DNA of 63,346 nucleotides from an uncultured Verrucomicrobiae bacterium (GTDB lineage: Bacteria; Verrucomicrobiota; Verrucomicrobiia; Limisphaerales; JAFGQR01): contig CAWBHS010000012.1 of the NCBI GenBank assembly GCA_963788655.1, positions 1-63,346 of the forward strand, written 5' to 3'. Shown here in pieces: positions 28,638 to 58,963 of this stretch (position 1 is its first letter; each line of letters starts with the position of its first letter). The notes under the pieces were generated by a model. It worked only from the letters and a program-made list of their open reading frames with translations. It made no database searches and was not told the DNA's origin. The position numbers and the translations under genes are program-made.

Positions 28638-28686
28638 AATGAGCTAAGACCTGGGGTTTCGGACCGTAATTACAATAATGGTTTCA

Positions 28687-28804: not shown

Positions 28805-28868
28805 GCTGAACTCGTACGTCGGGTGCCCAATCCGGCGCGTATTGCTTCAACCGAGCCACTGGCGCCTA

Positions 28869-31992: not shown

Positions 31993-32210
31993 GTCCCCAG
32001 CACACCAGCAAAACCGGGCATCGTCAACCGGCAAACCGTGACCACAAACCGCGGGAAGACACGACAACGCGACTGGCTTGTGCCGGCGACTTACGAGTTC
32101 GCAGGGCGTTGGCAGCCCGAGTGTGAAAACACTCCGTGGTTGCGGCTTTACGTCTCTTGTGATAACTCGATTCCCTTGGCACCCAAAAACGTCTCTTGAA
32201 ATCGCTTATT

Positions 32211-37440: not shown

Positions 37441-37547
37441 AACGCCAGGATACCGGAGGGTCCGCAGGATCGAAATGAGATTTCCGAAACCAGTTTAAGC
37501 TTGAGCCGCGGGCCGAAACCGCCTAAAGCCGGGCGGCAACATTAACT

Positions 37548-42532: not shown

Positions 42533-42979
42533 AGTGCGGAAAAGTTGGAGTGAATCAAAGTCAAAGGTTCAATTTGTCGGCCGCCGGGTTTCCACCGGGG
42601 CAAATTGTGCAGCCGCCCCGCCGCTACCCGCCGGCATCCCGCCACGCTCGCAACCAAAGCGGTCATCACGCGGAAAACCAATTGCCCGGCTCTTCTGGGT
42701 GCCAAAAGAGCCGCCTGTTCCCGCAGTGTTTGGGATTTGGTTACGATTTGCAAACACGATAGTCCCAAGCCTCAGTTTAAATGCCGCTTTCTGTCAATAT
42801 GTTTTAGCGGGCCTGACCCCCAAGAAAAAGCCGAATCGGCCCTTCCAATGTGCGGCCGGCCTCCGGCCAGCCATTTGGCAACGGGCACTTCGATCCGCCA
42901 CCCGCCGGACAATCGAACGCTTCCCTGGCAGTCGATTCTGCCGGCGAGACGCCGGCAGCACGTTGCGGCCGTGCCGGGT

Positions 42980-45194
42980 TCAATGGAAGAGCCGAGTGGT
43001 CATCGCGTAGATGATCAGCAACAGCAGGATAATGCCCAGCCCAAAGAAGAAGTAGCCAAACGAGCGGGCGATGGTTCTTCCAGCGTTCCCATTCATCCCG
43101 TATGCGGTACTGAATCCAACCGGCCTTCGGCCACCAATCGGTCATACCAGCGTTTGCGCTCGTGCAGCATCTCGGTCTTGGAGACGCGGCCGGAGAAAAT
43201 GACGGTATCCATCGGGAATTTCTCGATGCGGAAATGCGTGTTGAAGAAATGGATGGAGAAGATGAAGCCCGCCGCCAGCAGCGCCTCGTCCGAGTGAATG
43301 ATCAGCGCGATGTTGATGATCCAGCCCGGCAGAAAGCGCGTGAAGAACGGTCGGAAACCACATGATCAGTCCGGAAGCGCCAATGATGGCCACGCCCCAG
43401 AACACGGCGAAGTAATCGAACTTTTCCCAATACGTCCAGCGGTCAAATTGCGGTTTCGGCCCCTTGCCAAAGAACCATTTGTTGTGCGCCACAAAATCTC
43501 TCCAATCCTGCCAGGTTGGCATCATGGAATCCGGGCCGAAGAGCACGTGCCAGAGCCGTTTGAACTGGAACTTGCCGCGTGGCGGGATCGCGCAGCGATT
43601 TCCTGCCTTTCCACGCCTTGCCCATCAGCGAGGCCAGGTGCAGGCCGAAGTAAAGGAACGTGACCAGCGCGCCGAAGCGGTGCAACGTGCGCGCGGTTTC
43701 CGGGCCGCCGATGACGTTGAAAATCACCTTGGCCCAGTCCGTGTAGTAGAACTTGAGCGGCATGCCGGTGATGACCAGCAGCAGAAAACTGGTCACCACC
43801 AGGAAATGCAGGAAGCGTTCAAACGGCAGGAAGCGAGTGAACCATTCGTCGTCCACCTGCGTTTGGATTTTGGCTTCGCGGAATTTCTTCGAGTCGTGCA
43901 GGTAAAGATAAACCGCGCGGACGAGCCAGATGATGGTGTGCAGGCCAAAGAACGTGAAGACGCCGATCAGCAGGCCCGTCATGCCCAGAAAGACGGCGTG
44001 GAGCAACGGATAATGCTTGCCGTCCAGCGGGTTGGCGTGCGGATCGTATTGCGTGAAACCGATCGTTGCGCCGGGATGACACTTCTGGCAGGTGGCCAGA
44101 ATGTTGGTTTGGGACAGATGCGAGCGCGGATCGGACGGCGGCAGCACGTCGTGATAGCCGTGGCAGTCGTAACACGCGGCCACCGCCGGAGCGCGAATTC
44201 GGTTTGCCCAGCGCCATGGCCTTGCCGTGGTAGGTGTCGTGGTAATGCTCCAGGCGATCTTCGTGGCATTTGCCGCAACGTTGGTCGCTGATGGCCTTGA
44301 AGTTGTTGTTCGGCGGGATTTTCAATTTCGTGCGCGGTGTGGCAATCGGTGCAAACCGGCCCGCGCTGGTCGCCTTTGGCCAGCAATTGGCCGTGAACGC
44401 TTTGATCGTACGTCTGCTCGATGCCCAGGTGGCATTTGCCGCAGGTCTTGGCGACGTTGGCGTGGTTGATCGGCGAATCGCGGTCCACGTCGCGTTTGAT
44501 GTCATGCACGCCGTGGCAATCGTCGCACGACGGCGCCACAATCAATCCCATTTTCAGCAAGGCGTGTCCGTGGATGCTGTCCACGTATTCGGACGCCGCC
44601 TCGGGGATACTTCATTTCGTATTCCTTCGTCAGACCCGGATTGCTATGGCACTTGGCGCAGGTTCGCGGGAGATTCAACTTGAAGACCGGCGACGCCGGA
44701 TTGTTGACCGGCAAAATGTCGTGCGAGCCGTGGCAATCCCAACAATTGGCCGCGCCCGAGGCGCCGAGCTTGTGGCTCACGCCGTGGATGCTGGTCGCAT
44801 ACGCTTTGGCTTCGTCTTCGTGACATTCAGCGCAAATCGGTGGCGGCAAATTGCTGGCGTGAACGAGCTCTTTAATGCCGGCGTGACAATCCACACAATC
44901 CAGAATGGCATGCACGGAGAGGTCGAACGTATTCGTGGGGAAGACCGGCATCGGCACTTCCTTCCCGTTCACCGTGCGGACCTGGTCGGGTTCCAGGTGA
45001 CAATCCAGGCAATCGGAGTTGGCAATAGTCTCGGGCGCGGCCGCCGGTTCGGCTTCCGCGGCGCCAGCGTTGAAACCCACCAGCGGCAACAGAACCGCAA
45101 CGAGACATCCTCCTCCCATCCTGGCGAACGAGCGGCGATTTAGAATTGTACGGGGCATTGAATGAAGAGGAACAACCGGGACACGCATGGCCAT
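42980..45194 (-). CDS. CbcL-like multiheme c (11 CxxCH) plus cytochrome b membrane protein; several frameshifts
   Basis: CLDCH, CVDCH, CAECH, CWDCH, CAKCH, CDDCH, CGKCH, CTDCH, CGKCH, CYDCH, CQKCH; then ERFLH..ITGMPLKF, LHRFGA, RWTYWEKFDYFAVFWG, IHSDEA. Confidence 0.75.
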
Positions 45195-45195
45195 T

Positions 45196-46674
45196 CTATA
45201 ATCCTCCCGTATGACAATCGCTGCACAGGAAGTCGGGGTCGTATGCATCACTCGGATGTTTGAACTCCTGCCCTTCGGCACTGAGGTGATTAAGTTCTTC
45301 GCCGCGGCCCTGCGTCAAGATGATGTGACAGGCGTTGCAATCACCGGACTTGATCATCTCCTTGCCGCCATCCGAAACGTGTTTGCCGTCGTGACAACGG
45401 AAACACCCTGGCCACATCTTATGTCCAATATTATCGGGATAGGCTTTCCAGTTGGCCTTCATCTCCGGGAAGAAATTCTCGCTATAGATCGTCTGGACGG
45501 CGCTGATTACCTTGCGCGCCTGGGGGCTGTTGGGATAGCTGCTGGCCAGGGACGTCGCAATCTTCTGGAGCGCGTCGGTTTCATTCGTGTACGTTTGGGT
45601 AAGGACGTACATGGCATTGCTCTTGACCAAGGGAATGGAAGGATCAATGTTCCCCAGACTCATGGCCAGGTTCACCGCGTCGTTGGGCGATTTGTAAATG
45701 TGCGCCGGCCGGTTGTGACAATCCATGCAGTCCACGGTTCGAATTTCGCTTTCCGCCACTTGGTTGGTGAAGTCTTCAACCCGAAACACCGTCACCACGC
45801 CCTGGGCATCGGTGAGCCGCACCCACGGAATATCCTGGCGCGCCTTGTCGCGGGGGAAATACTCGACCTTGTTCCCGACGTTCATGTGCCAGTGGATGCC
45901 GCCCACCGGTCCGGAAGTCGGATCGCCCCCACCGACCTTGAGCAGCAGGCGCACAGAATACTCGGTGTTGGTCTGGTCGGTTAAGAAATGCGAAAAAGTG
46001 CGGTCCAAATTGCCGACAAACTTTCTTGGCCAATGACACTGCTCACACGTGTCCTGGGCCGGGCGCAGATGCTTGATCGGGGTGGGAATGGGCCGCGGAT
46101 ATTTATCCGCCAGGGTGGCGTACACCTGATACGTGCCGGACAGCTTGGAACGGACAAACCAAGTGGCGCCCGGACCAATGTGGCATTCGGTGCAGGCAAC
46201 GCGCGCATGCGGCGAATGTTGGTAGGTGACCAGTTCCGGTCGCATCACGGTATGGCAGGCCCCGCCGCAGAACTGCACCGATTCCGTGAAATGATAAGTC
46301 TTATAGCTGCCCAGCGCCGACAGCAGCAGGAAGAGCACGCCGCCGGTCAGGAAGTACGCAAAGATCCGGCGGTCCCGCGGCCGCGACAGATTGATCGTCA
46401 TGGGCAGCGGTGCGCCGTGCGCTTTGATCACTTGCCGGTGCCGCAGAAAAGCGCCCAGCAACGTCAGGCCAATCCCAAGAATCAGGAAGGCAGGCGCCAC
46501 GATGAAATTCAGAATCCCAACGTACGGATTCGAGGTCGGGGCGAGGACATGAATGAACAGCAGGAGAAAGAACGAGAACAAGCTGGCGGCCATGACCGCC
46601 ATGCCGCACCAGCTTAACCAATTGCGGAACAACGCGAGGCGTGTGGGCGGTTTTGCAGGGGAATCATTACTCAT
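45196..46674 (-). CDS. ImcH-like NapC/NirT family heptaheme inner-membrane cytochrome
   Basis: 3 N-terminal TM helices; CGGACH, CTECH, CEQCH, CMDCH, CFRCH, CNACH, CSDCH; GIHWH, HNRPAH. Confidence 0.8.
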   Translation of the reverse strand: MSNDSPAKPPTRLALFRNWLSWCGMAVMAASLFSFFLLLFIHVLAPTSNPYVGILNFIVAPAFLILGIGLTLLGAFLRHRQVIKAHGAPLPMTINLSRPRDRRIFAYFLTGGVLFLLLSALGSYKTYHFTESVQFCGGACHTVMRPELVTYQHSPHARVACTECHIGPGATWFVRSKLSGTYQVYATLADKYPRPIPTPIKHLRPAQDTCEQCHWPRKFVGNLDRTFSHFLTDQTNTEYSVRLLLKVGGGDPTSGPVGGIHWHMNVGNKVEYFPRDKARQDIPWVRLTDAQGVVTVFRVEDFTNQVAESEIRTVDCMDCHNRPAHIYKSPNDAVNLAMSLGNIDPSIPLVKSNAMYVLTQTYTNETDALQKIATSLASSYPNSPQARKVISAVQTIYSENFFPEMKANWKAYPDNIGHKMWPGCFRCHDGKHVSDGGKEMIKSGDCNACHIILTQGRGEELNHLSAEGQEFKHPSDAYDPDFLCSDCHTGGL

Positions 46675-46827
46675 AGATTAATCTTCACGAAACAAGTTGG
46701 TAAATGGGGGACGGATTGCCGGTGGCCGGTGGCATCGTTTGACCGTGCCAACCACGGGCAAGGCTCAAGTCGCCGCGCTTCCCGAGGGGGCTGATGAAAA
46801 ACTGATGGTCTGCGACGGCCGGCTCCC

Positions 46828-48089
46828 TCATGGCGCTTCCCCGCTGGTGGCCAAAACGGCGGAACTGCCGGTTGAATGATGTTCGCTGCTTTCGAGGTCG
46901 GGCGGCAGGAACAACTTGATAAAAACCACCAGAATGAGAAACGGCAGCAACAAAAGAAAGAGTGACATCAGCATACCTTCCATTCCAATGAATTCCATTT
47001 TGTAGCTCATGATGCCACGCAAGCTTTTGGAGAAAAGCTGGCCCCCAATGACCACGTTCCAGCGCATTGCCAGCACGCCGACGAGGATCAGCATCGAACT
47101 CGCAAAATACATCCGCCGCCGCTGCAATTCCGGCACGTGCTTGCGGATCAACTGCAACGACCCCAGCAAAATCAGCGGCACCAGCGTGCCACACAAGGCC
47201 TGGCCCAGATTCAACGTGTAAAACAGTCGTTCGTGGGCCATGTATTGCATGACTTGGAAGCCTTCTTCCGCCGAATAGACCCGATGGATCCAATCCAGGC
47301 CTTCCAGGGACGCATCAACAACCAAGGCAAAAAATAGAAACATCCCCATGACATCGAGACACTTCATGTCCACGGTCTTCCGGCGGACCCAGCTCAAAAC
47401 CATGTAATTGAACACACACAGCGCAATGCCGGAAACAATGGCGGACATGATGAAAATGATCGGCATCAGCACATTGCCCCACCAGGGATTGGCCTTGATC
47501 GAACCGAAGATAAAGCCCACATAACCGTGCAACAGGAACGCCGAAGGGATACCCACAATGGAAAGGATCACGTCCAATTTTAGCATCCAGCGCGAGCGCT
47601 GGCGGAGAGACATCGGTCACTCCCACGGTAAACAGCCGGTATAGAATACCTTTCAATCCCGCCTGGTTTTCGGACCATTCCACAAAATCGTGCCGATAAT
47701 CAAACCACAACTCCAGCAACAACACCGCCATCAAATACCAGGCATAAACGAATCCGAAGATCGCCATGGGCGAAGTCAGATGCGGCGTCATCATGATTTC
47801 GAAGCACCGCTCGGGATGCCCCAAGTGGCAGAGCAGCGGCAAGGCGGCGCAGAGCAGGAAGGCGAACGCCGTCAACAGCGACAACCGATACACCGGCTCC
47901 AGGGCCTTGACCTTGAACACCCGCACCAGCGAGGCCATGATGAAGGCACCCGCCACCAGCCCGGTGATGTACGGATACAGGACGATCAACATGCTCCACA
48001 GCGGGTGCATGCGTGGCCTCATTGGGATAGACATATCCTTCCAAGTGCGGCAACACTTCCACGACGATATTGGTAATTGCGTTCGTCAT
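46828..48089 (-). CDS. NrfD/PsrC family membrane subunit (CbcU-like); frameshifts near 48015 and 47575
   Basis: IVLYPYITGLVAG, HLGHPER, TSPMA, LHGYVGFIFG, MRWNVVIGGQ. Confidence 0.8.
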
Positions 48090-48090
48090 G

Positions 48091-48900
48091 TTATCGAACC
48101 TCCTTGTCAATGCCCGCGTAATAGACCCGCGGGGCCGTGCCCAGGTGCGGTTTCAGCGCTTCCACGCGATTGTTCCGGTAAAACACCTGGATGGGATCAT
48201 CTGGACCTGCGGTCAACAAATCACCAAAGATTCGCGCTTGCGTGGGACAGACCTCCACGCAGGCCGGCTTCAGGCCACGGGTAATCCGATGATAACAGAG
48301 CGTGCATTTCTCCGCGGTCTTCGTCAGCGGGCTCAAAAATCGGCAGCCGTAGGGGCAGGCCTGGATGCAGAAGCCACAACCAATGCAATACTTCGGATCA
48401 ATCAGCACCGCACCGTCCGGAGCATCAAAGGTGGCCCCGACTGGACAGGCCTGGGTGCAAGGTGAGTGCTCACAAAGGTTGCACAGTTTGGGCACGAAAA
48501 ACGAATGCTGAATCTCTTCCGCGGGAACCGGCACAGTTGAGAAGCCGTGCATTCCGCCGTCCGGAGAATCCACCAGCGTTTCGCCCCGGGCTTCACCCGA
48601 TCCGGGCTTGGGTTTGGTGATGATATAGCGTTCAATCCAAGTGCGAAAGTAGGGTCCTTCCGGCACATGGTTCTCTCGCTTGCAGGCTTCGGCGCAAAGG
48701 CCACAACCGATACACCGATTGGCATCGATGGCCATGACCCACTTGTGCTTGGTGGGGTCATAACCTTTGGGGGCACCGGAGGAAACAAATACTTTTCTTA
48801 CCGCTGCCTTGGCGGTCTTTAACGCCGGCAGGGCAGCTAACCCCGCGACAATGCCACTGATTCGGCCGAGAACGCTGCGCCGGGAAATCGTCTTTTTCAT
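48091..48900 (-). CDS. Tat-exported 4Fe-4S dicluster protein (NrfC/CbcT-like)
   Basis: SRRSVL; CIGCGLCAEAC, CNLCEHSPC..CP, CIGCGFCIQACPY, CTLC..PACVEVCP. Confidence 0.85.
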   Translation of the reverse strand: MKKTISRRSVLGRISGIVAGLAALPALKTAKAAVRKVFVSSGAPKGYDPTKHKWVMAIDANRCIGCGLCAEACKRENHVPEGPYFRTWIERYIITKPKPGSGEARGETLVDSPDGGMHGFSTVPVPAEEIQHSFFVPKLCNLCEHSPCTQACPVGATFDAPDGAVLIDPKYCIGCGFCIQACPYGCRFLSPLTKTAEKCTLCYHRITRGLKPACVEVCPTQARIFGDLLTAGPDDPIQVFYRNNRVEALKPHLGTAPRVYYAGIDKEVR

Positions 48901-49356
48901 GGCACCTCCGTCGGTTGATGGGGCACATGACACTCGGTGCATTTGTCACCGGCGTAATGCTCTTTGGAGTTGATCTGCTTGTGCCATTTCGGCCGGGAGG
49001 GATTGGCCTCATGGCAGCGGACACAGTGGCTATAAGTCAAAATCGTCATGGAATGGATGTCGGGATTGTCCACATGGGCCTGCCCGGCGCCGTGGCATCC
49101 TTCGCAAGACAACGTTTTGTGTACGCCCGTCGGTTACTTTTTCATACTCGTCGGCGTGACATTCTTCACAAGCTTTCGAACCCGCATAAACGCGGTCATA
49201 ACTGGCCAGTTCCTCCAGAGCGTTGCCCCGGTACCACCCGTACTCGTTGAACGAAGGCGGCGTCAGAAAAAATCGCGCCACCGAATACGAGCCGACAATA
49301 CCAATTGTCAGCAGCAAAATCCGGGTGACTTGCGGGGGGATCTTAGGGCGCAACAT
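48897..49356 (-). CDS. membrane-anchored tetraheme cytochrome c (CbcS-like); frameshift near 49130
   Basis: N-terminal TM helix; CEECH, CEGCH, CVRCH, CTECH. Confidence 0.75.
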
Positions 49357-49360
49357 ATTT

Positions 49361-49405
49361 AAAAAGCGAACCGGGAACCGTCCCTTTGTCCCGGTTCCCG
49401 GTTCG
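49361..49405 (-). terminator. intrinsic terminator inside the cytochrome cluster
   Basis: perfect 14-bp stem CGAACCGGGAACCG/CGGTTCCCGGTTCG followed by a T5 run on the minus strand. Confidence 0.7.
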
Positions 49406-49537
49406 TCGTTTCATTCGTATAACAATGGAGATAAAGACTCAAACTTCGGAAGCGAACCGATCCGAGTCCATGGTGTTGGGATCCAACCCACGTCCGGAGC
49501 CTCCGGATGGACCGTTGCTCGCTGAATCCAGCCGCAG

Positions 49538-49873
49538 TTATTTCTTCATCTTGCGGATCAGGTCAACCAAGGCCTTGATATCGGCATCGGAGAGGGTCGA
49601 AGCGTAGCCTTTCATCACGGTCCGCGAGCCTTCCTTCTTGCCTTCCTTGATGATCTTGGTGGCTTCTTCGTCGCTGAAGGCGGCCTGCACCTTCGCATCC
49701 GTGTAATCCTTGCACTTGAGCTTCTGGCCCATTTTGGTGTCGCCTTTGCCTTCCTTGCCGTGGCATTTGGCGCATTGTTTGTCCCAATTGGCCTGAGCAT
49801 CGGCAGCCGAAACGTTCCAGGTAAAAGCAGTCACGGCCAGCGCGGCGATTGCGGTTTTTAGTTTCCAGTTCAT
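49538..49873 (-). CDS. periplasmic monoheme class I cytochrome c
   Basis: signal peptide, CAKCH, distal Met in VMKGY, very Lys-rich. Confidence 0.9.
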   Translation of the reverse strand: MNWKLKTAIAALAVTAFTWNVSAADAQANWDKQCAKCHGKEGKGDTKMGQKLKCKDYTDAKVQAAFSDEEATKIIKEGKKEGSRTVMKGYASTLSDADIKALVDLIRKMKK

Positions 49874-50004
49874 AGCTATTTTTGTTTTGTCAGTATTGTA
49901 TTTGCTTACGATTTTTTATGCGGCACGGCCCTCGACACAGAGAGCAGCGTGCCAAAGTTGGACGGGGAAATCAGCCACGGTATTCTGTTGCGCACGTCGG
50001 TTTC

Positions 50005-52236
50005 TCAAAACAGATACTGGATGCTGGAATAAACCATGTGAGCTTGATAGTCGTTATAGCCCCCGGACGCATAATCCCGATTGTCAAAGTATCCGTATTT
50101 CAGGGTCCAGCGCATACGCGCGTTGATCCGCCGGATCATCGCCAACGTGACGGCATGCTCTTCGTCATCCGCTCCATAGGGCACACTGACGCTGGAGTTG
50201 TCCACGAAGTTGTTGGCGCGGTAATAGGAATAGTTGGCCTGGAGATCCGTCTTGGCGTTGAGGTTGTAACTGACCATGAAATTGGCGCTCCAATAGTCGT
50301 TCTTCGACGGCAACACCAAATTGGCATCCGCTCCAGCCAAGTCGTTGGCCGGGGTTTCGGTCTTGTCGAACGCGACATTGGCACTCGCCTGCAAGAAAAG
50401 TCGATTGCATGGCACCCAGGAGATGCTTTCGCCAAAGATGTGCGAAGTGGTTTCAGCGCTTTGGATTTCGGTCAGCCCGTTTCCCCGGGTGTCGATGCGC
50501 GAAAGTTGGAAATCGTACCGGCTCACGAAGGTCAGATTGTTCAACGGGCGCAGGGTAAAGCGGAAGTTCACATCATCCGTGTCGAATTCCTGCTCGTCGA
50601 TGAAGCCGGGATACCGTTTGTAAGTCGTTTGCGGTGCCCAGATCACAGAATGGTCGTAATCGTTGTTCCGCATTTTGTGATAGTACTGGGCGGCGAAATT
50701 CAGGCGCTTCCACGGATACCAGTTGGCGCCTATGCTGTACTTCTGGGTGAAGCGGTTGTAGTCGGTTTGCTGCGTATAGGCGTCCGGTAATAGGGGATTG
50801 CTAAAGAGGGACAGCCCTCCCGAAAAACGGTCGTTCTTGTTGCCCTGGTCCTGTGCCCATTCCGCCCGGCCGTAGAACACCCAATTCGTGAGGCGCGAGT
50901 AACGCAGGTCCAGGCGCTCCGAAACCGCCAGCAAATCGCGGTCACTGTCAGCGCGCGAACTGATGAGGGAGTTGCGCGGACTGGCAAGATCGTCAAAGAT
51001 CGAACTGGCCTCGGTATCTTGTTTTTCCACCCGCACAGACGGCACCACCGAGAAGTATTCCCAGGGCTTGTAAGCGAGGTTGAGGTTGACGACGTACTCC
51101 TTCAACTGCGAGCCACCGGAGAGGTTCCAATAGCCCTCATCGCCGGGCAGCGCCCGCAGCCCGAAAGTATTCAAGTCGTACGCCAGATCGTAACCCGCCC
51201 CATAAAACCGGCTGCCAGACAAATCGCTGTCCAACGTGGTGAAGGAAGCTCCGGCCGTCAGCATCAGCTTGTCATTGAACCGGGTGATCGCCGAACCATG
51301 AACGTTGAACAAATCAACGTTGTTCTTGTCCCGGGTAGTCACGTAACGGTCGGGTTGTATCATCAGCCCCGGAAAGGATTCGCCGGGACGCCGATGCACA
51401 TTCAGCGAATCATCAATTTCCGAAGTTTCATAACGCAGGCCCAGGCCCAGAGTGGTCTTGGCGATCGTGTGCCGGCCAGTTAATTCAAAAATGTCGCGCT
51501 TCTCGTCAATATCCCGGAAGGAGGGCACAATGCCGCGCAGAAAAGGATCGGCCGCATTGGGACGATTGACGGTGGAATAATCTCCCCACGAGGTGGAGTC
51601 TTCCAGGCCGCGGCGAAATTTGTGATCATACCGGAACTTGAGTATCGGCAGATCGGGCATGGTCAATCCTGCTTCGAACCAAGCATCCCCGCGATCGATG
51701 TGCAAATTCTCGTTGTACAACGAAAACCATTTTTCGCCCTGGGGCAGAAACCCACCGCTGCCGTCATACCAAGTCCGATATTCCCGATACCCGGCCCGCA
51801 CATAACCCTTGTCCGGATACGAATAATCCAGCTTCAGGTTGTAGTCGTGCAGATCGAAGATTCCACGCCCGTCCAGTTTGAACAGTCCTTCTTTCCCGAC
51901 GCTCTTTTCGTAATGAAAACCCTCGACGCCACCAAACGCACCGCGCGGCAGGTTATGCCGTTTCATGAACTGCGCTTTGTCGCCGTCCACGGCCACGCCG
52001 CCCACTGAAACATTCACCCAATTCTTCAGTTCCGAAACGTCCACTTCGGGTTCTTCTTCCGCTTCGGCCTTGGGCTCGGGTTGGTCATTGGATTTCGCCG
52101 CCGAGGCATCTTCGGCGGCCAGCGCCGGGCTGCCCATCAGGCACAAGCCGGTAAACAACACGAGCCCACGCGCAAATCGGCGATCCTTGGATTGAGTATT
52201 GGATTCTAGTTGCATAGGTTTCTGAGGTTCCGGCAT
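50005..52236 (-). CDS. MtrB/PioB-like outer-membrane beta-barrel porin
   Basis: signal peptide; alternating aromatic beta-strands; C-terminal QYLF; immediately downstream of the MtrA-like gene. Confidence 0.75.
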   Translation of the reverse strand: MPEPQKPMQLESNTQSKDRRFARGLVLFTGLCLMGSPALAAEDASAAKSNDQPEPKAEAEEEPEVDVSELKNWVNVSVGGVAVDGDKAQFMKRHNLPRGAFGGVEGFHYEKSVGKEGLFKLDGRGIFDLHDYNLKLDYSYPDKGYVRAGYREYRTWYDGSGGFLPQGEKWFSLYNENLHIDRGDAWFEAGLTMPDLPILKFRYDHKFRRGLEDSTSWGDYSTVNRPNAADPFLRGIVPSFRDIDEKRDIFELTGRHTIAKTTLGLGLRYETSEIDDSLNVHRRPGESFPGLMIQPDRYVTTRDKNNVDLFNVHGSAITRFNDKLMLTAGASFTTLDSDLSGSRFYGAGYDLAYDLNTFGLRALPGDEGYWNLSGGSQLKEYVVNLNLAYKPWEYFSVVPSVRVEKQDTEASSIFDDLASPRNSLISSRADSDRDLLAVSERLDLRYSRLTNWVFYGRAEWAQDQGNKNDRFSGGLSLFSNPLLPDAYTQQTDYNRFTQKYSIGANWYPWKRLNFAAQYYHKMRNNDYDHSVIWAPQTTYKRYPGFIDEQEFDTDDVNFRFTLRPLNNLTFVSRYDFQLSRIDTRGNGLTEIQSAETTSHIFGESISWVPCNRLFLQASANVAFDKTETPANDLAGADANLVLPSKNDYWSANFMVSYNLNAKTDLQANYSYYRANNFVDNSSVSVPYGADDEEHAVTLAMIRRINARMRWTLKYGYFDNRDYASGGYNDYQAHMVYSSIQYLF

Positions 52237-52240
52237 TCAA

Positions 52241-53063
52241 CTAATAGTGCAAAGACGGGCTCACTTGTGAACCATGGACCGCTTCGTGACAGCCGGCCGT
52301 CCAACAGGTGCCGCGCGCCAGAAAATCTTGATGGGGAATATCCCCAATGAGAATGCCACTCGAGGTGCGTTGTTGGAAATGACATTTCAGGCACAAGTTG
52401 GCGTTGCGCTGGCGCAGCAGCTTGGCATTGACCGAACCATGCGGGTCATGGCAGGTGGTGCAACCTTCCCGCATCGCCTCATGCTGGAAAACGAACGGAC
52501 CGCGCTGCTCGATGTGACAATCAAAACACAGCGCATCGATCGAGTCCGTCGAAGTACCTCGATGACCCAACAGCGATCCTTTATGCGGATTGTGACAATC
52601 GCTACAGCTCATCCGACCTTCAAGCACCTGGTGGTGATAGGGCATGTTTTGGAACTGTCCCCGCTTATCCATGTGGCATTGGAAGCAGATTTCCGGTGAC
52701 TTGCGCGGATTGACGATGTTTCCCCGGCCGCCGCCCGCATCCGAATGGACGCTTCCCGGGCCATGGCAAGCCTCGCAGCCCACATTGATCGCATTGGGGC
52801 TGTTGACCTTCAACAGCGCGTGGTCCGCTCCCGCCTTGAATCCCTGCGTGATTTGATCGTGGCAAATCATACAGTCTTCCGACCCAATGAAGGTCGCCCC
52901 GGGAATCTGCGAAGGAATCACCAGAGGACTGGTTAGTGGAAACACAAGACACCACTACCAGGGAAACCACCAAGGCGCTGCCGGCCACCCAGAGTCTCCG
53001 GTGGCGAAGCCACCTTCCGAAGCGAAATGTGTTTGCGTCTGTGGACGCGGTTTCAGGTTTCAT
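52241..53063 (-). CDS. MtrA/DmsE/PioA-family cytochrome with 8 heme motifs; lipobox-like signal; frameshift near 52937
   Basis: VVVSC; CMICH, CEACHGPGSVH, CFQCH, CSDCHNPH, CFDCH..RGPFVFQH, CTTCHDPHGS, CLKCH, CWTAGCH..VHGS. Confidence 0.8.
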
Positions 53064-53173
53064 CGTTATTCTAAGTGATCTTGCTGCGCCGGTAACTTCA
53101 CACGTTCAACAGAGGCCAATGGCCGTAAATGATCGCGCGCGATGTCGACCATTTGCGCCGGCCGTCCCCTGCC

Positions 53174-54856
53174 CTATTCGACCTGATCCAATTCGGCATT
53201 GACCAGATACTCCGCCACACTCAACAGATACCGCTCGTAGTCCGCGTTGTGTACGCCGAAGCTAGCGTCGTGCTCCACCAAATAAAGGTTAAAACGCGCT
53301 TGTTTGATGTTGTCAGGAATCAACGCCTGCTCACTGGAAGACGGTCCCTTTAGATCGGGATTTCCGGTGGGATTCGAAAGTTGGCCTTCGTTGGTGTATT
53401 CCCAGGCCAGAGTTCCGTATTGGGTCAGTCCGGCAGGTGCTTTCATGGTGGCCCACGTATCGAGCAGATCCTTCACCTGCGCGATGCGATTGGTGATCTC
53501 CGTTTGGACATGCGCGATGAACAACTCTGCTTCACTTTCGGAATGGCATGGCGCGCACGAGTCCAGCCGCGGCCTAAAACCATGTCCGGTATAGACCGGT
53601 TCTTCGTCACTGGGTTCTTCCGGTTCTTCCGGGTGCATGTGGCAATGCGCGCACTGCTCATCCACCTGACGATGGTAGGACTGCGGCGGTGGCAGCGGCC
53701 CCAATTCATAACCGCCGTCTCCGATCAAGATATTATACTGCGGCGAATGGTGCGGTGGCCGGCTGGTATCGTCCCATTTGGCGCCCCGCTGATTATGGCA
53801 CTGGCCGCATACATTGATGTTGGGATTGTACTGCGCGGCAAAATCGACGCTGGTCTGGTAGGAGAAGAATTCCAAGGACTCCTCGGGATTGCGCAGTTGG
53901 AGGTCGTTCCCGGTCGGGGTGTGGGGATTATGGCAGACCACGCACGTCACGGCCGTGACGGCCGCTTCTTCCGCAGTGGGCAACAAGCCATCCAGCGGAA
54001 GGTTCTCCTTATAACTCTTGAGCATGGCCAGCCGCACCGCGCCGGAGTGGCAAGCACCACAGGATTTCATGCGCGACGCATTCGATCCTTCGTTGATCGC
54101 ATCCTCGACCACTGCCCCGTGGGGCGACGTGGACCAATCATCGTAGGTCGGATGGTGAAAACCGTTGTGGCACCCGCCGCACAATTCCGCTGCTTCCCAG
54201 ACAATCGGCGGCTTGGTAAAGAACGGACTCCGCGCATGGTCACCCGCCGGACCGTGACAATTTTCGCACTGCACTCCCGCCAAATTGGCATTGGCCGTCT
54301 CATTCGTGAAGCCCGTGGGCAATCCATATCCCACCGTGTGGCACTGCAAGCACTCGCTGTTGTGGTCCTGGTGAATCCGTTTCAGCGTCTCCAGCGCCGT
54401 GGCGTGGTGGGTGTTGACCCACCCGGCGGTTTCCGGATTGAAATTGGTGTGGCAGGTCAGACACACGCCGGCGCCGGCAAACAGCGGAGCCGGAGTAGTG
54501 ACGCGGAAATATTGGTTGTCGCTGGTCGCGGGCAAGGTGAAGTTGGTGCCGTAAGTCTGGGTCACCATGGACCAACTTTGCGTTCCCAACGTTGGTGTTT
54601 GTTGCAGCGTGAACGGCCCGCCAAACGGATCCCACCATTGAACCGTGACTTGCTGGTTGCTGCGGACCACCGAGGTGATGTATGGAAGCGGCAGAATCCC
54701 CCCTTCGTGCAACACGGGTTGGTCAAAAGTCTCAGCCACCACGCGTGGCGCCGGGCCCATTAAACTCCAGGCCACAGCCAACGCCATCATCGTTAATGAC
54801 GACATGTAAGTCATCTTTCTCGCGAGGGTTTTTGATAAGTGCATTTGCGGCTTCAT
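53174..54856 (-). CDS. nonaheme cytochrome c (c554-like N-part, c552/OmcB-like C-part), probably outermost component
   Basis: CLTCH, CLQCH, CENCH, CGGCH, CGACH, CVVCH, CGQCH, CAHCH, CAPCH; C-terminal FNLYLVEHDASFGVHN. Confidence 0.75.
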   Translation of the reverse strand: MKPQMHLSKTLARKMTYMSSLTMMALAVAWSLMGPAPRVVAETFDQPVLHEGGILPLPYITSVVRSNQQVTVQWWDPFGGPFTLQQTPTLGTQSWSMVTQTYGTNFTLPATSDNQYFRVTTPAPLFAGAGVCLTCHTNFNPETAGWVNTHHATALETLKRIHQDHNSECLQCHTVGYGLPTGFTNETANANLAGVQCENCHGPAGDHARSPFFTKPPIVWEAAELCGGCHNGFHHPTYDDWSTSPHGAVVEDAINEGSNASRMKSCGACHSGAVRLAMLKSYKENLPLDGLLPTAEEAAVTAVTCVVCHNPHTPTGNDLQLRNPEESLEFFSYQTSVDFAAQYNPNINVCGQCHNQRGAKWDDTSRPPHHSPQYNILIGDGGYELGPLPPPQSYHRQVDEQCAHCHMHPEEPEEPSDEEPVYTGHGFRPRLDSCAPCHSESEAELFIAHVQTEITNRIAQVKDLLDTWATMKAPAGLTQYGTLAWEYTNEGQLSNPTGNPDLKGPSSSEQALIPDNIKQARFNLYLVEHDASFGVHNADYERYLLSVAEYLVNAELDQVE

Positions 54857-55134
54857 AGATAATTGCGAGCTTGCGTTAGATTTATCGTTGACCAGCGATC
54901 CCCATAGCACGCCCGCTCCTGCAACAGGAGGGCAATTCTTGAATTGTATCGCTGTTATTCATGACCAACGGGAGGTGAGAGTAGTTGCGGCCAAAAACGG
55001 CGTAAACACCGATCTTGCCTTTACCTTTGCATATTTTGCCTTGAGCAAATCGCCAACCAGCCGGGCTCGAAACAGAGGTTCCCGACGACGGCCCCAGCCC
55101 GCAACCTGTCTGGAAGTCCCTTCCCGTTGAAACG

Positions 55135-55701
55135 TCATGAGAGGTTGGAGTGATTGCGGGAATTTCCCGGTCGGCGACAGCAGTGCCGCGCAAGTTTGGT
55201 GGAGGCCGGCTTCAGGGTTTGCCCGGCTCGCGAGCGGACGAGCGTCTGACTGCCGGAGGAGGTCTGCGGTGCCCGACCTACCTTGCGTTTGAGTTCGATC
55301 ATGCACTGCACCACACTGGCCAGACTGGTGTTGCGCAAGGCGTCTTGGATCTGCCCCCGAATCTTCTTCCAGATCTTTTGCGTGGGGCAAACACAGTACG
55401 CCGTGTAGTCGTCCATTCCCAACAGGCACTCCCCGATCCAGGCTTTGCCTTCAATCGCTTCCACCACGTCCAGCAGGGAGATTTCCGTGGAAGGCCGGGT
55501 AAGAAAGATGCCGCCGCGATAGCCTCGTTTGGTGGTGACCAGGCCTTTACGGGACAATTGGTTGATGATCTTGGCCAAATACGGTTTGGGAATGGCAGTA
55601 CACTCGGCAATGTCACGAATCAGGCGGGGATGACACGTCGGGTCTTCCAAGCAGCACAACGCGTGTACCGCGTAACCCGTGGTTTGTGAAAGGCCCATCA
55701 T
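55135..55701 (-). CDS. Rrf2 family transcriptional regulator
   Basis: YAVHAL, IPKPYLAKI, TKRGYRGG, ISLLDVVEAIEG, CLLG...CVCP. Confidence 0.9.
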   Translation of the reverse strand: MMGLSQTTGYAVHALCCLEDPTCHPRLIRDIAECTAIPKPYLAKIINQLSRKGLVTTKRGYRGGIFLTRPSTEISLLDVVEAIEGKAWIGECLLGMDDYTAYCVCPTQKIWKKIRGQIQDALRNTSLASVVQCMIELKRKVGRAPQTSSGSQTLVRSRAGQTLKPASTKLARHCCRRPGNSRNHSNLS

Positions 55702-55748
55702 AATTCGTTTTTGGCAGAATCCTAACTGATATAGAAATTGTCAATTAT

Positions 55749-55772
55749 AAAGATGACCCAAAGATCATCTTT
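55749..55772. promoter_or_regulatory. candidate Rrf2 operator
   Basis: AAAGATGA-N8-TCATCTTT perfect inverted repeat next to a minus-strand TTGACA upstream of rrf2. Confidence 0.5.
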
Positions 55773-55923
55773 TTAACCAGAGGAATGTTTTGTATGTTGA
55801 TTCCTTAATGCGCCATGCGCCGACAATGGGCGCGCCTCATTGGTGAACAGGGGGCTTCCGGCCGAACTGAACGCCCCCCTACGGCAGGAAACCCGCTGGT
55901 GAACCGATCGGCTCGACCGGCCT

Positions 55924-57075
55924 CTACAGCAGAGCCACGGCTCGCTCCAACTCGCTGTCGGTGTTGTAAAAATGGGGGGAATAGCGAAGATACCGCTGCC
56001 CGGCGCGGTCGGAACGCAACGAAACAACAATGCCAGCTTTTTCCAGTTTCTGGTGCAATGCTGGCAGGTCGGCGTCCAGTCGATAACACGTTACGATGCC
56101 GCTGGCATGTTCCGGCGGGGCTTCGGCTTGCAGCACCTGATACCCTTTGGCCTGCAAGGCTGGCACCAGCCAATTACGTTTGCGCAACAGTTCTCCAGAA
56201 ATCTCTTCCACCCCCAGTTCCATGATCAGTTCCAGCGCCGCATGGATGCCCACCAAGCCCAACAGATTGTCGGATCCTGCTTCGTATCGACGCGAATCCG
56301 GTGGATAAACCAATTCCTCCTGGGAGATGAAGTCCGGACACCGCACATTGTGCCAGCCGTAAATGGGTGGCCGCAACTTGTCCTGCCAGGCTTTCCGCAC
56401 ATATAAAATGCCGGCGGCACAAGGTCCGAGCATCCACTTGTGGGCGTCGGCAGCCAGGAAATCAATGTGTTCGACCGTGGTCGGAAACGCTCCCACCGTT
56501 TGAATGGCATCCACGCAAAACGCAATGCCGCGCGAGTGGAGAAACCGGCCAATGCCATCCAAGTCGATCCGCCAACCGCCTACAAAGTGGCAGGAGGCCA
56601 GGGCCACCAGGCGGGTTTGCTCATCAACTTGACCTTGCACGTCCACCAAACGAATCCGCCCCAGTTCGCGTACGTTCAGGAACCGGACCTCGACGCCCCG
56701 GTCCACCAAGGCCATCCAGGGATAGACGTTCGAAGGATAATCGTCGTGGTAGATCACGACGTTGTCGCCTTTGCCGCAGGGAAAGCCGCTGGCAATGAAA
56801 CTCAATCCGAGCGAAGTCGGTCCCACGAAAGCGATCTCTTCCGGTTGCGCCTTCAGCAAGCGGGCTGCCATTTCGCGCGTCTGCTTAACCCGCAGACCGG
56901 GTCCAATGGTTTCCTGGTCGCCTAGGGTTGACTGAGCGGCGTAATCTCTAATGGCTTCCGCCACCCGGCGCGGCAAGGGGCATACTCCGGCATGCGCCAG
57001 GAAAGCCTTCGCGCGCGCCACGGGAAATTCGTGGCACCGCAGTTCTTCGTTCGCGTGGAGTTCAGTCAGCGTCAT
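55924..57075 (-). CDS. class V PLP-dependent aminotransferase-fold enzyme
   Basis: YPSNVYPW, VDAIQTVG, ADAHKWMLGP, RYSPHFYN. Confidence 0.85.
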   Translation of the reverse strand: MTLTELHANEELRCHEFPVARAKAFLAHAGVCPLPRRVAEAIRDYAAQSTLGDQETIGPGLRVKQTREMAARLLKAQPEEIAFVGPTSLGLSFIASGFPCGKGDNVVIYHDDYPSNVYPWMALVDRGVEVRFLNVRELGRIRLVDVQGQVDEQTRLVALASCHFVGGWRIDLDGIGRFLHSRGIAFCVDAIQTVGAFPTTVEHIDFLAADAHKWMLGPCAAGILYVRKAWQDKLRPPIYGWHNVRCPDFISQEELVYPPDSRRYEAGSDNLLGLVGIHAALELIMELGVEEISGELLRKRNWLVPALQAKGYQVLQAEAPPEHASGIVTCYRLDADLPALHQKLEKAGIVVSLRSDRAGQRYLRYSPHFYNTDSELERAVALL

Positions 57076-58411: not shown

Positions 58412-58630
58412 TGCTGATGCGAAGGAGACTACCTGCCGCGGCTCAGAAAACCAAGAAATGCTCACCTCCGAGACACTCCACGCTCAGTCTGCGCTCCGAT
58501 CACTTCTGTTTTTTGCGCCAAATTCCTGTCAAAAAGATGGCGCGATATCCTTCACATAAATGGATTACAGAGGCTGATCCGGTTTCGTCGGAGCAGCGAA
58601 CCTTGAAAGAATCGCCTCAGCCTCAAAACG

Positions 58631-58963
58631 CTGGAGACCGGGCCGATCACGCGATTTGCCGGGGCGGGTAATTACGTTTCCTATTGTCGGGGGGTGCGCG
58701 CCGAGAAACTTTCCAACGAGCGCAAGAAAGGCCAGAACAACCGCAAATGTGGGAACAAGTATCTGGCCTGGGCCTGGATGGAAGCTGCGCATTTTGCGAT
58801 CCGCTACAGCCCGCAAATCAAAGCCTGGTATCAACGCAAACTCAAACGCTGCGGCGGCCAGACGGCGATCGCCCTAAAAGCGGTCGCGGCCAAACTGGCC
58901 AACGCGGCGTATTACCTACTCAAGAATCAAGCAGATTTTAAGATTCAACAAGTCTTTGGCTAA
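58631..58963 (+). pseudogene. IS110-family transposase, C-terminal (Tnp_20) remnant
   Basis: LETGPITRF..AGNYVSYCR...SNERKKGQNNRKCGNKYLAWAWMEAA...KAVAAKLANAAYYLL. Confidence 0.85.

Follow-up and report, generated by a model that had tools for sequence, protein, structure and literature searches.

Does this run of genes from an uncultured bacterium encode a complete path for electrons between the quinone pool and the cell exterior, and if so, in which direction would they flow? The window (the whole stretch of DNA analysed, 63,346 bases) carries ten genes of interest, all on the minus strand and running from 55701 to 42983 (Table 1). A preliminary description had correctly placed them at 42980-55772; the strand was added here. 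Its gene order, its haem count for each gene and its total of about 40 haem-c motifs agreed with a six-frame motif scan and with profile and solved-chain searches made gene by gene along the locus, and each of its gene assignments was upheld by family, structure or architecture evidence. The window contains 40 CxxCH motifs, of which 38 fall between 44090 and 54463 on the minus strand; with one CX4CH in the octahaem gene and one CX3CH in the ImcH-like gene, the locus total is 40. We read the locus as an operon-like extracellular electron transfer cluster of the verrucomicrobial porin-cytochrome type, which probably sends electrons outward to Fe(III) or humics (probability about 0.75). Its host looks like an uncultured, polysaccharide-degrading member of the Limisphaerales/Pedosphaerales lineage from soil or sediment.

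Table 1. Genes of the locus, in gene order, with haem-c motifs per gene
Gene product	Position	Strand	Haem-c motifs	Basis
Rrf2-family transcription regulator	55138..55701	-		188 aa as read; Pfam Rrf2, TIGR00738
Nonahaem c-type cytochrome, OcwA/NrfA-family	53177..54910	-	9	9 CxxCH, 6i5b_A match
Octahaem MtrA/DmsE-like cytochrome, lipoprotein	52244..53063	-	8 (7+1)	7 CxxCH + CX4CH, 6r2q_A match
Outer-membrane beta-barrel, 743 aa, intact, MtrB-like fold	50008..52236	-	0	structure model, 26 strands
Periplasmic monohaem class I cytochrome c, signal peptide	49541..49873	-	1	Pfam Cytochrome_CBB3, Cytochrom_C
Membrane-anchored tetrahaem cytochrome, CbcS/NrfB-like	48900..49356	-	4	4 CxxCH over two frames
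Tat-exported four-4Fe-4S-motif protein, NrfC/DsrO/TtrB-like, intact	48094..48900	-	0	Pfam Fer4_11
NrfD/PsrC-family integral membrane quinone-interacting subunit	46831..48089	-	0	Pfam NrfD on both pieces
ImcH-like inner-membrane heptahaem cytochrome, intact, 492 aa	45199..46674	-	7 (6+1)	CX3CH + 6 CxxCH, Pfam Cytochrom_NNT
CbcL/MtoC-like fusion, 11-haem c domain + C-terminal b-type membrane domain	42983..45194	-	11	11 CxxCH over three frames

Four of the genes are broken by a total of 11 single-base insertions, bearing out an earlier suspicion of indels. One insertion lies at about 52925-52937, immediately past the lipobox cysteine of the octahaem; one is in the tetrahaem gene (about 49122-49128), two are in the NrfD gene (about 48011 and 47569) and seven are in the CbcL-like gene (about 44606, 44311-44317, 44193, 43577, 43351, 43113 and 43076-43079). 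With the extra bases skipped, the frames were free of stops and 63-78% identical to orthologues from other families: 95/150 residues for the tetrahaem against the intact 150-aa L025 orthologue, 328/421 for NrfD against that of L025, and 506/712 for the CbcL-like protein against the intact 718-aa L015 orthologue. So many breaks within 12.8 kb, with seven in a single gene, could also be those of a decaying locus in which the CbcL-like, NrfD, tetrahaem and octahaem genes are pseudogenes, but this is highly improbable: every break is a single extra base, and the same kind of break is found in rpoB (2 frame breaks) and rpoC (at least 4, plus a TGA) of the same assembly and in a decarboxylase elsewhere in the window. 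When the locus was divided into 30 bins, RNA contigs from one sediment library matched 25 of them at 90-95% identity. These contigs stem from a related population, and DNA may be present in a library of this kind; at 43349 and 44194, the only break sites that they span among the matches listed, the extra base is absent. Because rpoB and rpoC are broken likewise, the skipped frames are stop-free and the RNA contigs lack the extra base, we judge the 11 frameshifts to be errors of an error-prone assembly.

The octahaem and the barrel form the outer-membrane part of the proposed path. The octahaem carries seven CxxCH motifs and an invariant CX4CH, a 7+1 pattern kept in 69 of 70 orthologues; 61 of the 70 have a lipobox-like motif. 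It scored 157.1 bits on TIGR03508, under the cut-off of 192.2, and matched the MtrA chain of the Mtr complex (6r2q_A) at E 4.2e-31; by sequence it is a homologue of MtrA, as had been proposed. The barrel gave no Pfam or NCBIfam family above its cut-off and was negative in each sequence-family test for MtrB/PioB, a family matched by only 1 of 15 barrel orthologues (E 0.0076). Its AF2 model (pLDDT 87.7, pTM 0.84) has 26 long strands. Foldseek returned 6r2q_B as the best match of this model (E 5.2e-15, TM 0.57/0.64), and VIA gave Z 20.9 against MtrB, with an rmsd of 3.9 across 560 residues, and 14.3 for the runner-up. On the model, MtrB is the nearest solved fold, well above all others. The earlier label of an MtrB-like porin thus stands for the fold but not for the sequence family.

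In a model of the two proteins together, the octahaem sits inside the barrel, with a score of 0.89 against 0.00 for the best of three controls; among solved complexes 116 of 157 reach that mark, and among mismatched pairs 2 of 215. As the Mtr complex is already solved, the pass may in part reflect likeness. Contacts agreed by at least 79% between runs, partner pLDDT was at least 73, and the octahaem is contacted by strands all round the barrel (residues 93-693). Modelling of this pair had been proposed in the preliminary description together with the doubt that the barrel might not be MtrB-like or might not house the cytochrome, and both the fold match and the complex model speak against that doubt. 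The synteny search that it had also proposed covered 80 related loci and showed the octahaem gene to come immediately before the barrel gene in 71 of the 71 whose flanks were long enough. The arrangement resembles that of Shewanella MtrCAB (PDB 6R2Q) in its MtrA-homologous wire, its 26-strand barrel with MtrB as nearest fold, the cytochrome gene immediately 5' of the barrel gene and the cytochrome inside the barrel (modelled here). It differs in that the wire has eight haems, not ten, and is a lipoprotein; the barrel is 13-14% identical to MtrB without a sequence-family match; an OcwA-like nonahaem stands in place of an MtrC-type decahaem lipoprotein; and the quinol oxidase is not CymA.

The nonahaem has a Sec signal, with no lipobox in it, and an N-terminal Fn3-like beta domain. 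Nine CxxCH motifs are also found in 30 of 32 orthologues. Its best solved relative by sequence is OcwA of Thermincola potens, likewise with nine haems (6i5b_A, PDB 6I5B, E 2.2e-16), and Foldseek, with a model of pLDDT 71.7, also placed 6i5b first (E 2e-6, TM 0.33/0.38), followed by the S-layer undecahaem of Carboxydothermus ferrireducens (6QVM). Both relatives are cell-surface terminal reductases of iron reducers, but their hosts are Gram-positive and have no outer membrane; identity is about 22%, TM is only 0.33-0.38 on a middling model, and the Fn3-like domain is extra. Part of the locus could instead be a periplasmic Nrf-like system, in which a soluble NrfA/ONR-like nonahaem is fed by an NrfBCD-like set of tetrahaem, 4Fe-4S protein and NrfD. 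The nonahaem does weakly match Cytochrom_C552/NrfA (Pfam E 3.3e-7; Foldseek about 2e-3), its signal without a lipobox would suit such a role, the FeS and membrane subunits score on NrfC and NrfD models, and the authors of the Limisphaera isolates label their 9-haem counterpart periplasmic where they tabulate it (PMC13608581). Nevertheless, we regard this as quite unlikely, since all nine motifs are CxxCH without any CxxCK, the solved surface cytochromes rank ahead of NrfA, and the nonahaem accompanies the barrel and octahaem (upstream of the barrel in 25 of 63 related loci and downstream in others), whereas the NrfD module lies beside them in only 5 of 43.

All three inner-membrane entry modules that had been proposed were found by architecture. 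The ImcH-like protein has three TM helices, its CX3CH at residue 136, 36.8 bits on Pfam Cytochrom_NNT (cut-off 24.1) and a match to NrfH 2j7a_C at E 0.0026. It shares with Geobacter sulfurreducens ImcH (GSU3259) the three TM helices, seven haem motifs, NapC/NirT homology and conserved quinol-site residues, E131, H141, K177, Q183 and Y192 corresponding to E127, H137, K173, Q179 and Y188 at a constant offset of +4. The CbcL-like protein weakly matches Pfam Ni_hydr_CYTB and DUF4405 and NCBIfam FdnI; its membrane domain is FdnI/HydC-like (FdnI 1kqf_C, E 5e-4, with an orthologue as query). Like CbcL (GSU0274), it fuses a multihaem c domain to a dihaem-b-type membrane domain, with 11 haems against nine in Geobacter. 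The third module resembles Cbc4/CbcSTU (GSU0068-0070), which likewise comprises a membrane-anchored tetrahaem, a 4Fe-4S protein and a membrane subunit. Its tetrahaem has one N-terminal TM helix and four haems in the L025 orthologue; its 4Fe-4S protein has a twin-arginine signal and four Cys-cluster motifs, with Fer4_11 at E 1.8e-24 and scores of 180, 157 and 142 bits on TtrB, DsrO and NrfC, all under the cut-offs; and the NrfD pieces cover positions 10-132 and 141-311 of the Pfam profile, whereas Geobacter CbcU is annotated as a b-type cytochrome. These Geobacter likenesses are of architecture and published residues. The three systems are encoded at separate loci in Geobacter, as the preliminary description stated, but are contiguous here.

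The remaining cytochrome is the monohaem (Cytochrome_CBB3 E 5.8e-11, Cytochrom_C E 1e-9), whose nearest solved chains are of the c-552 type (E 1.2e-7) and whose gene lies downstream of that for the barrel in 51 of 75 related loci. In 22 of 43 loci an ImcH-like gene follows on the downstream side within 10 kb. When each family of the order was represented by a single relative (60 in all), 29 had a barrel orthologue, 26 an ImcH-like protein, 16 a CbcL-like protein and seven the NrfD module, and all of the 16 and all of the seven also had the ImcH-like protein. At least two other genomes have all four modules of the locus contiguous, and the same-genus genome G001 (93% complete) matched none of the barrel, ImcH-like and CbcL-like queries. 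The Rrf2 gene is set apart: its product is a clear family member (Pfam E 2.9e-29; TIGR00738 106.8 bits, cut-off 73.3), with cysteines at 92, 103 and 105, which we take to be the positions where Rrf2 proteins ligate an Fe-S cluster, and its long C-terminal tail may be an indel artefact. None of 80 related loci showed an Rrf2 relative beside the cluster, which makes the link of this gene to the electron-transfer system weak, and any regulatory role would be conjectural.

In the path so read, menaquinol would give up its electrons at the inner membrane to any of the three modules, the ImcH-like NapC/NirT-type cytochrome, the CbcL-like cytochrome b fusion or the Cbc4/Nrf-like complex; electrons would cross the periplasm, possibly on the monohaem cytochrome, pass along the lipid-anchored octahaem threaded through the barrel and leave by the nonahaem, presumably at the surface, to Fe(III), humic quinones or other insoluble acceptors of that sort. 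This predicted function, and with it the order of hand-over, the substrate and the direction, is drawn from gene content. Direction cannot be read from sequence, and the conduit could run inward in the manner of Mto/Pio, supplying the quinone pool with electrons taken from a partner cell, from reduced humics or from Fe(II) outside the cell. The mto clusters of Fe(II) oxidisers include the monohaem MtoD, and the order of MtrA-like protein, barrel, monohaem c and CbcL/MtoC-like protein here parallels theirs. By Zhong and Shi 2018 (PMC6295460), MtoC and MtrH are presented as CbcL homologues of metal oxidisers that are probably bidirectional. Inward flow nonetheless appears unlikely: the window is rich in glycoside hydrolases, with a sulfatase and carbohydrate-binding proteins, which fits an organoheterotroph in need of an electron sink; Geobacter ImcH is linked to reducing acceptors of high potential; the outer cytochrome looks like the terminal reductases that iron reducers use; and the sole known phenotype in the lineage, as given in the Limisphaera report, is Fe(III) reduction (PMC13608581). 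If outward transfer is correct, a fermentative sugar degrader could shed reducing equivalents through respiration.

The system is not new, and the locus is a good example of a kind already described in Verrucomicrobia. The preliminary description rightly mentioned reports of porin-cytochrome genes there: He et al. 2017 (mSphere, PMC5615132) reported a verrucomicrobial porin-multihaem cytochrome cluster from humic anoxic settings. Judged from their published description, the shared features are a porin of at least 20 strands, an adjoining cytochrome with eight conserved haem sites and a further multihaem cytochrome. Those authors termed their system non-homologous to Mtr or Geobacter PCC, and their text on the cluster names no inner-membrane partners, whereas in the present locus the octahaem is clearly homologous to MtrA, the fold of the barrel is that of MtrB and three quinone modules are contiguous. 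The suggestion that any novelty lies in the combination is the weak point, as the same modules recur jointly in related genomes and, by architecture, in iron-reducing Limisphaera isolates. These isolates (Life 2026, PMC13608581) are polysaccharide degraders that grow by reduction of ferric citrate and ferrihydrite, a phenotype reported there from isolates. Their likeness to the locus is one of architecture. It comprises three products with adjacent accession numbers (a porin of 26-28 strands, an SPII cytochrome carrying 6-7 CxxCH and a cytochrome of nine haems) and an inner-membrane pair of 3 TM/6 CxxCH and 6 TM/10-11 CxxCH. In that report the modules lie at separate loci of one to three genes, and no Cbc4-like module is listed alongside. 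Verrucomicrobial ImcH and CbcL homologues were also tabulated by Zhong and Shi 2018 (PMC6295460), where the genes are given singly, without porin-cytochrome context. In that table, the haem motifs are spaced as in the L015 CbcL-like orthologue both in Opitutus terrae Oter_2603 (729 aa, 11 haem motifs, 6 TM) and in a CbcL homologue from a Verrucomicrobia MAG (723 aa, 11 motifs), and Oter_2584 (472 aa, 7 motifs, 3 TM) has its motifs at the positions of the ImcH-like protein of the window minus 16-17.

Stop-to-stop reading combined with Pfam and NCBIfam scans resolved a run of ten co-oriented genes, listed in the table together with the other features discussed. Scanned in six frames, the 63,346-base window has 40 CxxCH motifs, 38 of them on the minus strand at 44090-54463, and the 40 haem-c motifs which a preliminary description had ascribed to the locus were counted here as well. 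The best reading of the locus, at a probability of about three in four, is an outward electron conduit, and the overall interpretation given in that description stands. In such a conduit three quinol-oxidising modules would supply electrons, which the monohaem cytochrome might relay to the MtrA-like octahaem threaded through the MtrB-like barrel, and the OcwA-like nonahaem would reduce Fe(III) or humics on the outer side. Promoter and terminator sites in 42500-56200 were no commoner than in shuffles (4 versus a mean of 6.1, and 20 versus 17.7). The G + C content of the locus (55-57%) is slightly lower than that of the remaining window (58-62%).

Features of the electron transfer locus, its surroundings and related regions (G000 is the window's own genome; L023 and L025 are loci in other genomes)
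Feature	Sequence	Coordinates	Strand	Content
Ten-gene locus	window	55701 to 42983	-	putative extracellular electron transfer cluster
Gene 1	window		-	Rrf2 regulator
Gene 2	window		-	nonahaem cytochrome
Gene 3	window		-	octahaem cytochrome, 7 CxxCH and an invariant CX4CH
Gene 4	window		-	743-aa protein without haem (barrel)
Gene 5	window		-	monohaem class I cytochrome c
Gene 6	window		-	tetrahaem cytochrome
Gene 7	window		-	Tat-exported protein, four 4Fe-4S motifs
Gene 8	window		-	NrfD-family membrane protein
Gene 9	window		-	492-aa ImcH-like cytochrome, three TM helices then CX3CH and 6 CxxCH
Gene 10	window		-	CbcL-like, fusion of 11-haem cytochrome and b-type membrane domain
Two very large secreted proteins	window	9740-17582	+	956 and 1685 aa; Lamin-tail, CotH, CBM_4_9 and Ig-like domains
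ORF without family	window	28620-30416	+	599 aa, poor third-position GC
Peptidase_M16 match	window	30586-32205	-	profile positions 1-58 only
Orn/DAP/Arg decarboxylase gene	window	37527-38682	+	split in two frames near 38050-38234
Transposase fragment	window	58607-58960	+	IS110/IS116/IS902 family, 3 kb upstream of the locus
Second porin-cytochrome pair	L108 (G000:C38:117000-136000)	about 8824-12193	-	octahaem paralogue, then barrel paralogue
Nine-haem CbcL-like paralogue	L109 (G000:C97:8000-22000)	about 5876-7516	+	about 28-35% identical
Second three-gene module	L023	3014-6388	-	follows the NrfD module
Second three-gene module	L025	101-3430	-	follows the NrfD module
rpoB and rpoC	G000:C45	51013-58956		broken reading frames

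The nonahaem cytochrome has nine CxxCH motifs, a Sec signal and an N-terminal Fn3-like domain, and is without a lipobox. Its best solved relative by sequence is 6i5b_A (E 2.2e-16), from an entry titled as the outer cell-wall cytochrome OcwA. A fold search with its model, which is of middling confidence (pLDDT 71.7), placed OcwA (6i5b, TM 0.33/0.38) and the Carboxydothermus S-layer undecahaem cytochrome first, and NrfA enzymes after them. By its number of haems and its similarity to OcwA the protein is OcwA-like. An Nrf-like function of part of the locus in the periplasm would suit the NrfA matches and the Sec signal without a lipobox; with OcwA and the S-layer cytochrome ahead of NrfA in the fold search, we consider such a role quite unlikely.

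The octahaem cytochrome shows, by sequence, clear homology to MtrA (chain A of the Mtr complex, 6r2q_A, E 4.2e-31). It scored 157.1 bits against the MtrA/DmsE decahaem family TIGR03508, below the curated cut-off of 192.2, the protein having eight haem motifs and the family ten; it was also below the cut-off of the GSU2203 decahaem model of NCBIfam. A lipobox Cys was found in thirteen octahaem orthologues and in the upstream frame of the window, and among 70 orthologues the 7 + 1 motif arrangement is present in 69 and a lipobox-like motif in 61. A second pair of porin and cytochrome genes is present in the window's own genome: the octahaem paralogue shares 48% identity and has 7 CxxCH, and after it comes a barrel paralogue that shares about 25% identity and is itself read in two frames. 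Just 5′ of the barrel match lies one CxxCH, which recalls a one-haem porin listed for Limisphaera in the available part of its description.

The barrel had been described as an MtrB-like porin, and its fold agrees with this; sequence-family models give no match. There was no match to Pfam MtrB/PioB (PF11854) at E <= 0.01, none above cut-off among all Pfam and NCBIfam families, and only chance matches, with no MtrB chain, when PDB chains were searched by sequence and by profiles of 15 and 85 sequences. One of 15 orthologues matched PF11854, at E 0.0076 and below the cut-off, and PF11854 is found on 10% of the members of one Atlas cluster, which is taken as a lead only. The barrel family is large: a threshold of E <= 1e-3 admits 971 representative clusters, and one of E <= 1e-30 still 312. 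The barrel of MtrB has 26 strands. The AlphaFold2 model of the present barrel, built from an 85-sequence alignment (pLDDT 87.7, pTM 0.84), has 26 long strands, and Foldseek returned MtrB (6r2q_B) first with E 5.2e-15 and TM 0.57/0.64, followed by TonB-dependent receptors at about 1e-10 and TM 0.32-0.44. Comparison with 6r2q_B by VIA-align gave Z 20.9 and an rmsd of 3.9 over 560 residues at 14% identity, the next best Z being 14.3.

Only 8 bases separate the end of the octahaem gene from the start of the barrel gene. Modelling of barrel residues 60-743 together with the octahaem gave a score of 0.89 against 0.00 for the best of 3 controls, a pass that may be partly likeness because the Mtr complex has already been solved; this mark was attained in 116 of 157 solved complexes and in 2 of 215 mismatched pairs. 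Contact agreement in the runs was at least 79% and partner pLDDT at least 73, and the contacts fall on alternate residues of the strands all around the barrel. A barrel unable to house the cytochrome had been named as grounds for abandoning the reading; as modelled, it houses the adjoining MtrA-type octahaem. Electrons might also flow inward through such a conduit, which we regard as unlikely.

Three putative inner-membrane modules accompany the conduit. In the ImcH-like protein the TM helices lie at 26-44, 52-70 and 104-122, PF03264 (NapC/NirT) matches with 36.8 bits, above the cut-off of 24.1, and the 6 + 1 motif arrangement recurs in 29 of 29 orthologues. Three N-terminal TM helices, seven c-haem motifs and NapC/NirT homology are the hallmarks of ImcH in the available part of a recent preprint (bioRxiv 10.1101/2023.05.03.539133), which also gives as conserved residues the haem-1 His, a distal Gln and nearby Glu, Lys and Tyr (E127, H137, K173, Q179 and Y188). 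These correspond at a constant +4, by offset and not by alignment, to E131, H141, K177, Q183 and Y192 here, and the haem motifs lie 16-17 residues beyond the positions tabulated by Zhong and Shi for the ImcH homologue of Opitutus terrae. Atlas neighbours, again a lead only, are 450-510-aa NapC/NirT cytochromes of Acidobacteriota, Verrucomicrobiota, Pseudomonadota and Thermodesulfobacteriota. On its helices, haem motifs, NapC/NirT homology and conserved residues, the protein is predicted to be an ImcH.

Intact orthologues of the CbcL-like protein have 718-746 aa, with 11 CxxCH followed by 4-5 TM helices on a crude scale; one of them matched FdnI (1kqf_C) at E 5e-4, and the pieces in the window gave weak Ni_hydr_CYTB and FdnI matches. 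Geobacter CbcL has nine haems, whereas the protein here has eleven. Its motif pattern is that of the verrucomicrobial CbcL/MtoC/MtrH homologues of 729 and 723 aa, with 11 motifs and 6 TM, in the supplementary table of Zhong and Shi 2018 (PMC6295460), as far as that source was available. A CbcL/MtoC/MtrH architecture, with a multihaem c domain joined to a HydC/FdnI-type dihaem b domain, is predicted on this basis. Another region of the genome encodes a nine-haem CbcL-like paralogue, and six relatives have a paralogue of this kind directly 3′ of the 11-haem gene.

In the NrfD module, the tetrahaem orthologue has one TM helix and 4 CxxCH, and the FeS protein carries four cluster motifs behind a Tat signal. 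The two genes have the make-up of CbcS, a membrane-anchored tetrahaem cytochrome, and CbcT, an iron-sulfur protein, as Cbc4 is described in the accessible part of PMC13591261. Compared by description, Geobacter CbcU is annotated as a b-type cytochrome, whereas the membrane subunit here is of the NrfD family. A second three-gene module, absent from the window, follows the NrfD module in L023 and L025 and encodes a small cytochrome with 2-4 haems, a protein of 328-407 aa resembling FeS proteins, and a membrane protein of 581 aa.

Four of the genes are broken. Intact orthologues from related genomes were aligned to the window DNA with a frameshift-aware script, which placed 11 breaks in the locus, each due to one surplus base. 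The CbcL-like gene has seven of them, the NrfD gene two, and the tetrahaem and octahaem genes one each; an extra skip at 45081, in the poorly conserved CbcL-like N-terminus, appeared in one of two CbcL alignments and was left out of this count. With the extra bases skipped the frames are stop-free, and they share 506 of 712 (CbcL-like), 328 of 421 (NrfD) and 95 of 150 (tetrahaem) positions with orthologues in other families of the order. The source assembly (8.96 Mb, 115 contigs, 86% complete, 5.6% contamination) has rpoB in three frame pieces and rpoC in at least 5 pieces with an internal TGA, which points to frequent indel errors across the whole assembly. Words of the locus were found in one public run only (share 0.06), a sediment metatranscriptome kept as contigs, and no DNA run containing them was found among the public runs searched. 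With 90-95% identity to the locus, the RNA contigs cover 25 of its 30 bins; at 43349 and 44194 they are one base short, matching two inferred break sites (43351 and 44193), the only ones spanned among the contigs listed. Given the stop-free repaired frames, the broken rpoB and rpoC and the RNA contigs without the extra base, the breaks are almost certainly assembly artefacts and not, as the preliminary description had allowed, real frameshifts. Decay of the locus, to which broken genes might otherwise be attributed, is highly improbable, because rpoB, rpoC and the decarboxylase of the same assembly share such breaks and the repaired frames are free of stops.

Programmed +1 frameshifting was considered for the uniform direction of the breaks and rejected, since breaks of the same kind affect essential genes outside the locus. 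The decarboxylase gene, outside the locus, matches Pfam Orn_Arg_deC_N positions 4-145 in one frame and 150-247 in the next. The Peptidase_M16 fragment and the 599-aa ORF on the opposite strand probably represent another frameshifted gene and a spurious antisense ORF.

Sixty relatives, one per family of the same order, were searched for the modules. A barrel orthologue (E <= 1e-120) was found in 29, an ImcH-like protein in 26, a CbcL-like protein in 16 and the NrfD module in 7; all four occur together in five genomes. Every CbcL-like holder and every NrfD holder also has the ImcH-like protein, which adjoins the CbcL-like one in 13 of the 16 CbcL-like holders. None of the modules was found by these queries in a genome of the same genus (93% complete). 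In a search of species-representative genomes the single barrel protein retrieved no relative and a 15-sequence barrel alignment retrieved 171. The best 80 of these 171 loci come nearly all from MAGs labelled Verrucomicrobiota, Limisphaerales or Pedosphaera, and among them the octahaem lies directly 5′ of the barrel in all 71 loci whose flank is long enough. The nonahaem gene is found upstream in 25 of 63 and the monohaem gene downstream in 51 of 75; an Rrf2 relative beside the barrel was found in none of the 80. Where at least 9 kb of downstream sequence was present (43 of the best 80), the ImcH-like gene occurs in 22 loci and the NrfD module and the CbcL-like gene in 5 each. The order of the window (conduit, monohaem, NrfD module, ImcH-like) is common to five loci (L070, L082, L088, L093 and L098), and in the genomes of L088 and L082, the latter judged by coordinates, a CbcL-like gene directly follows the ImcH-like one; the all-in-one arrangement is therefore uncommon but not unique. 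In a phylum-wide sample the barrel was found at E <= 1e-40 in 6 of 150 other genomes, so it is not widely found outside the order in that sample. Clear orthologues of the barrel also occur in records labelled Methylomirabilota, Akkermansia muciniphila, Acidoferrum, Bifidobacterium, Sulfopaludibacter or Binatia (L029, L043, L044, L068, L080, L087, L089, L091 and L103), which are probably mislabelled or mis-binned MAG contigs.

A locus of this kind is already known. He et al. 2017 (PMC5615132) described, in the part of the paper available, what they called a "novel porin-MHC" from six MAGs of bog Verrucomicrobia, Opitutus terrae being among the organisms that have relatives of it. It comprises a porin of at least 20 strands, an adjoining cytochrome with eight haem sites and sometimes an extracellular MHC nearby, and they proposed that it transfers electrons to humic substances. 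By description the present locus fits that cluster in its strands, eight-haem neighbour, further MHC and verrucomicrobial host. Zhong and Shi 2018 (PMC6295460, available part) list 4 CbcL-type homologues and 1 ImcH homologue in Verrucomicrobia. The accessible part of a 2026 Limisphaera paper (PMC13608581) describes dissimilatory iron reduction as a first for the phylum, and the protein set of its Table S5g matches the locus by architecture. We found no literature treating ImcH, CbcL, porin and Verrucomicrobiota together, and no title on the fold of this barrel in literature from 2019 on MtrB homologs in Verrucomicrobia. The novelty hoped for in the combination of modules mostly falls away, and what holds is that the locus is an unusually complete member of its kind. 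Modestly new beyond the cited papers are the MtrB fold of the barrel around an MtrA homologue and the conserved ImcH-like/CbcL-like tandem pair, often joined to the conduit.

The MtrB fold, with an MtrA homologue modelled inside it, ties the system to the Mtr/Mto lineage. We tentatively suggest that the verrucomicrobial porin-cytochrome complex may be a deep branch of MtrAB, with a 26-strand barrel of drifted sequence and an eight-haem, lipid-anchored MtrA homologue, and not an independent invention; in Limisphaerales it would have combined with a Cbc4-like module and an ImcH-CbcL gene pair to form a self-contained island, through which abundant polysaccharide degraders in soil, sediment and bog could reduce Fe(III) and humics in a potential-tunable way. 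If the locus functions as an outward conduit, many Limisphaerales/Pedosphaerales could respire iron oxides or humic substances, and carbon would be diverted from fermentation and methanogenesis, as the available text of He et al. 2017 proposed (PMC5615132). As one of the most complete single-locus versions, the locus suits heterologous expression or use as a marker set.

Soils, peat, lake sediments and groundwater commonly harbour Limisphaerales and Pedosphaerales, which are regarded as sugar degraders. Outside the locus the window encodes GH106 rhamnosidases, a sulfatase and large carbohydrate-binding proteins, which fit the polysaccharide degrader that the preliminary description had proposed as host. 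The two very large secreted proteins, with two adjoining GH106 rhamnosidases and the sulfatase, look like a polysaccharide-utilisation neighbourhood.
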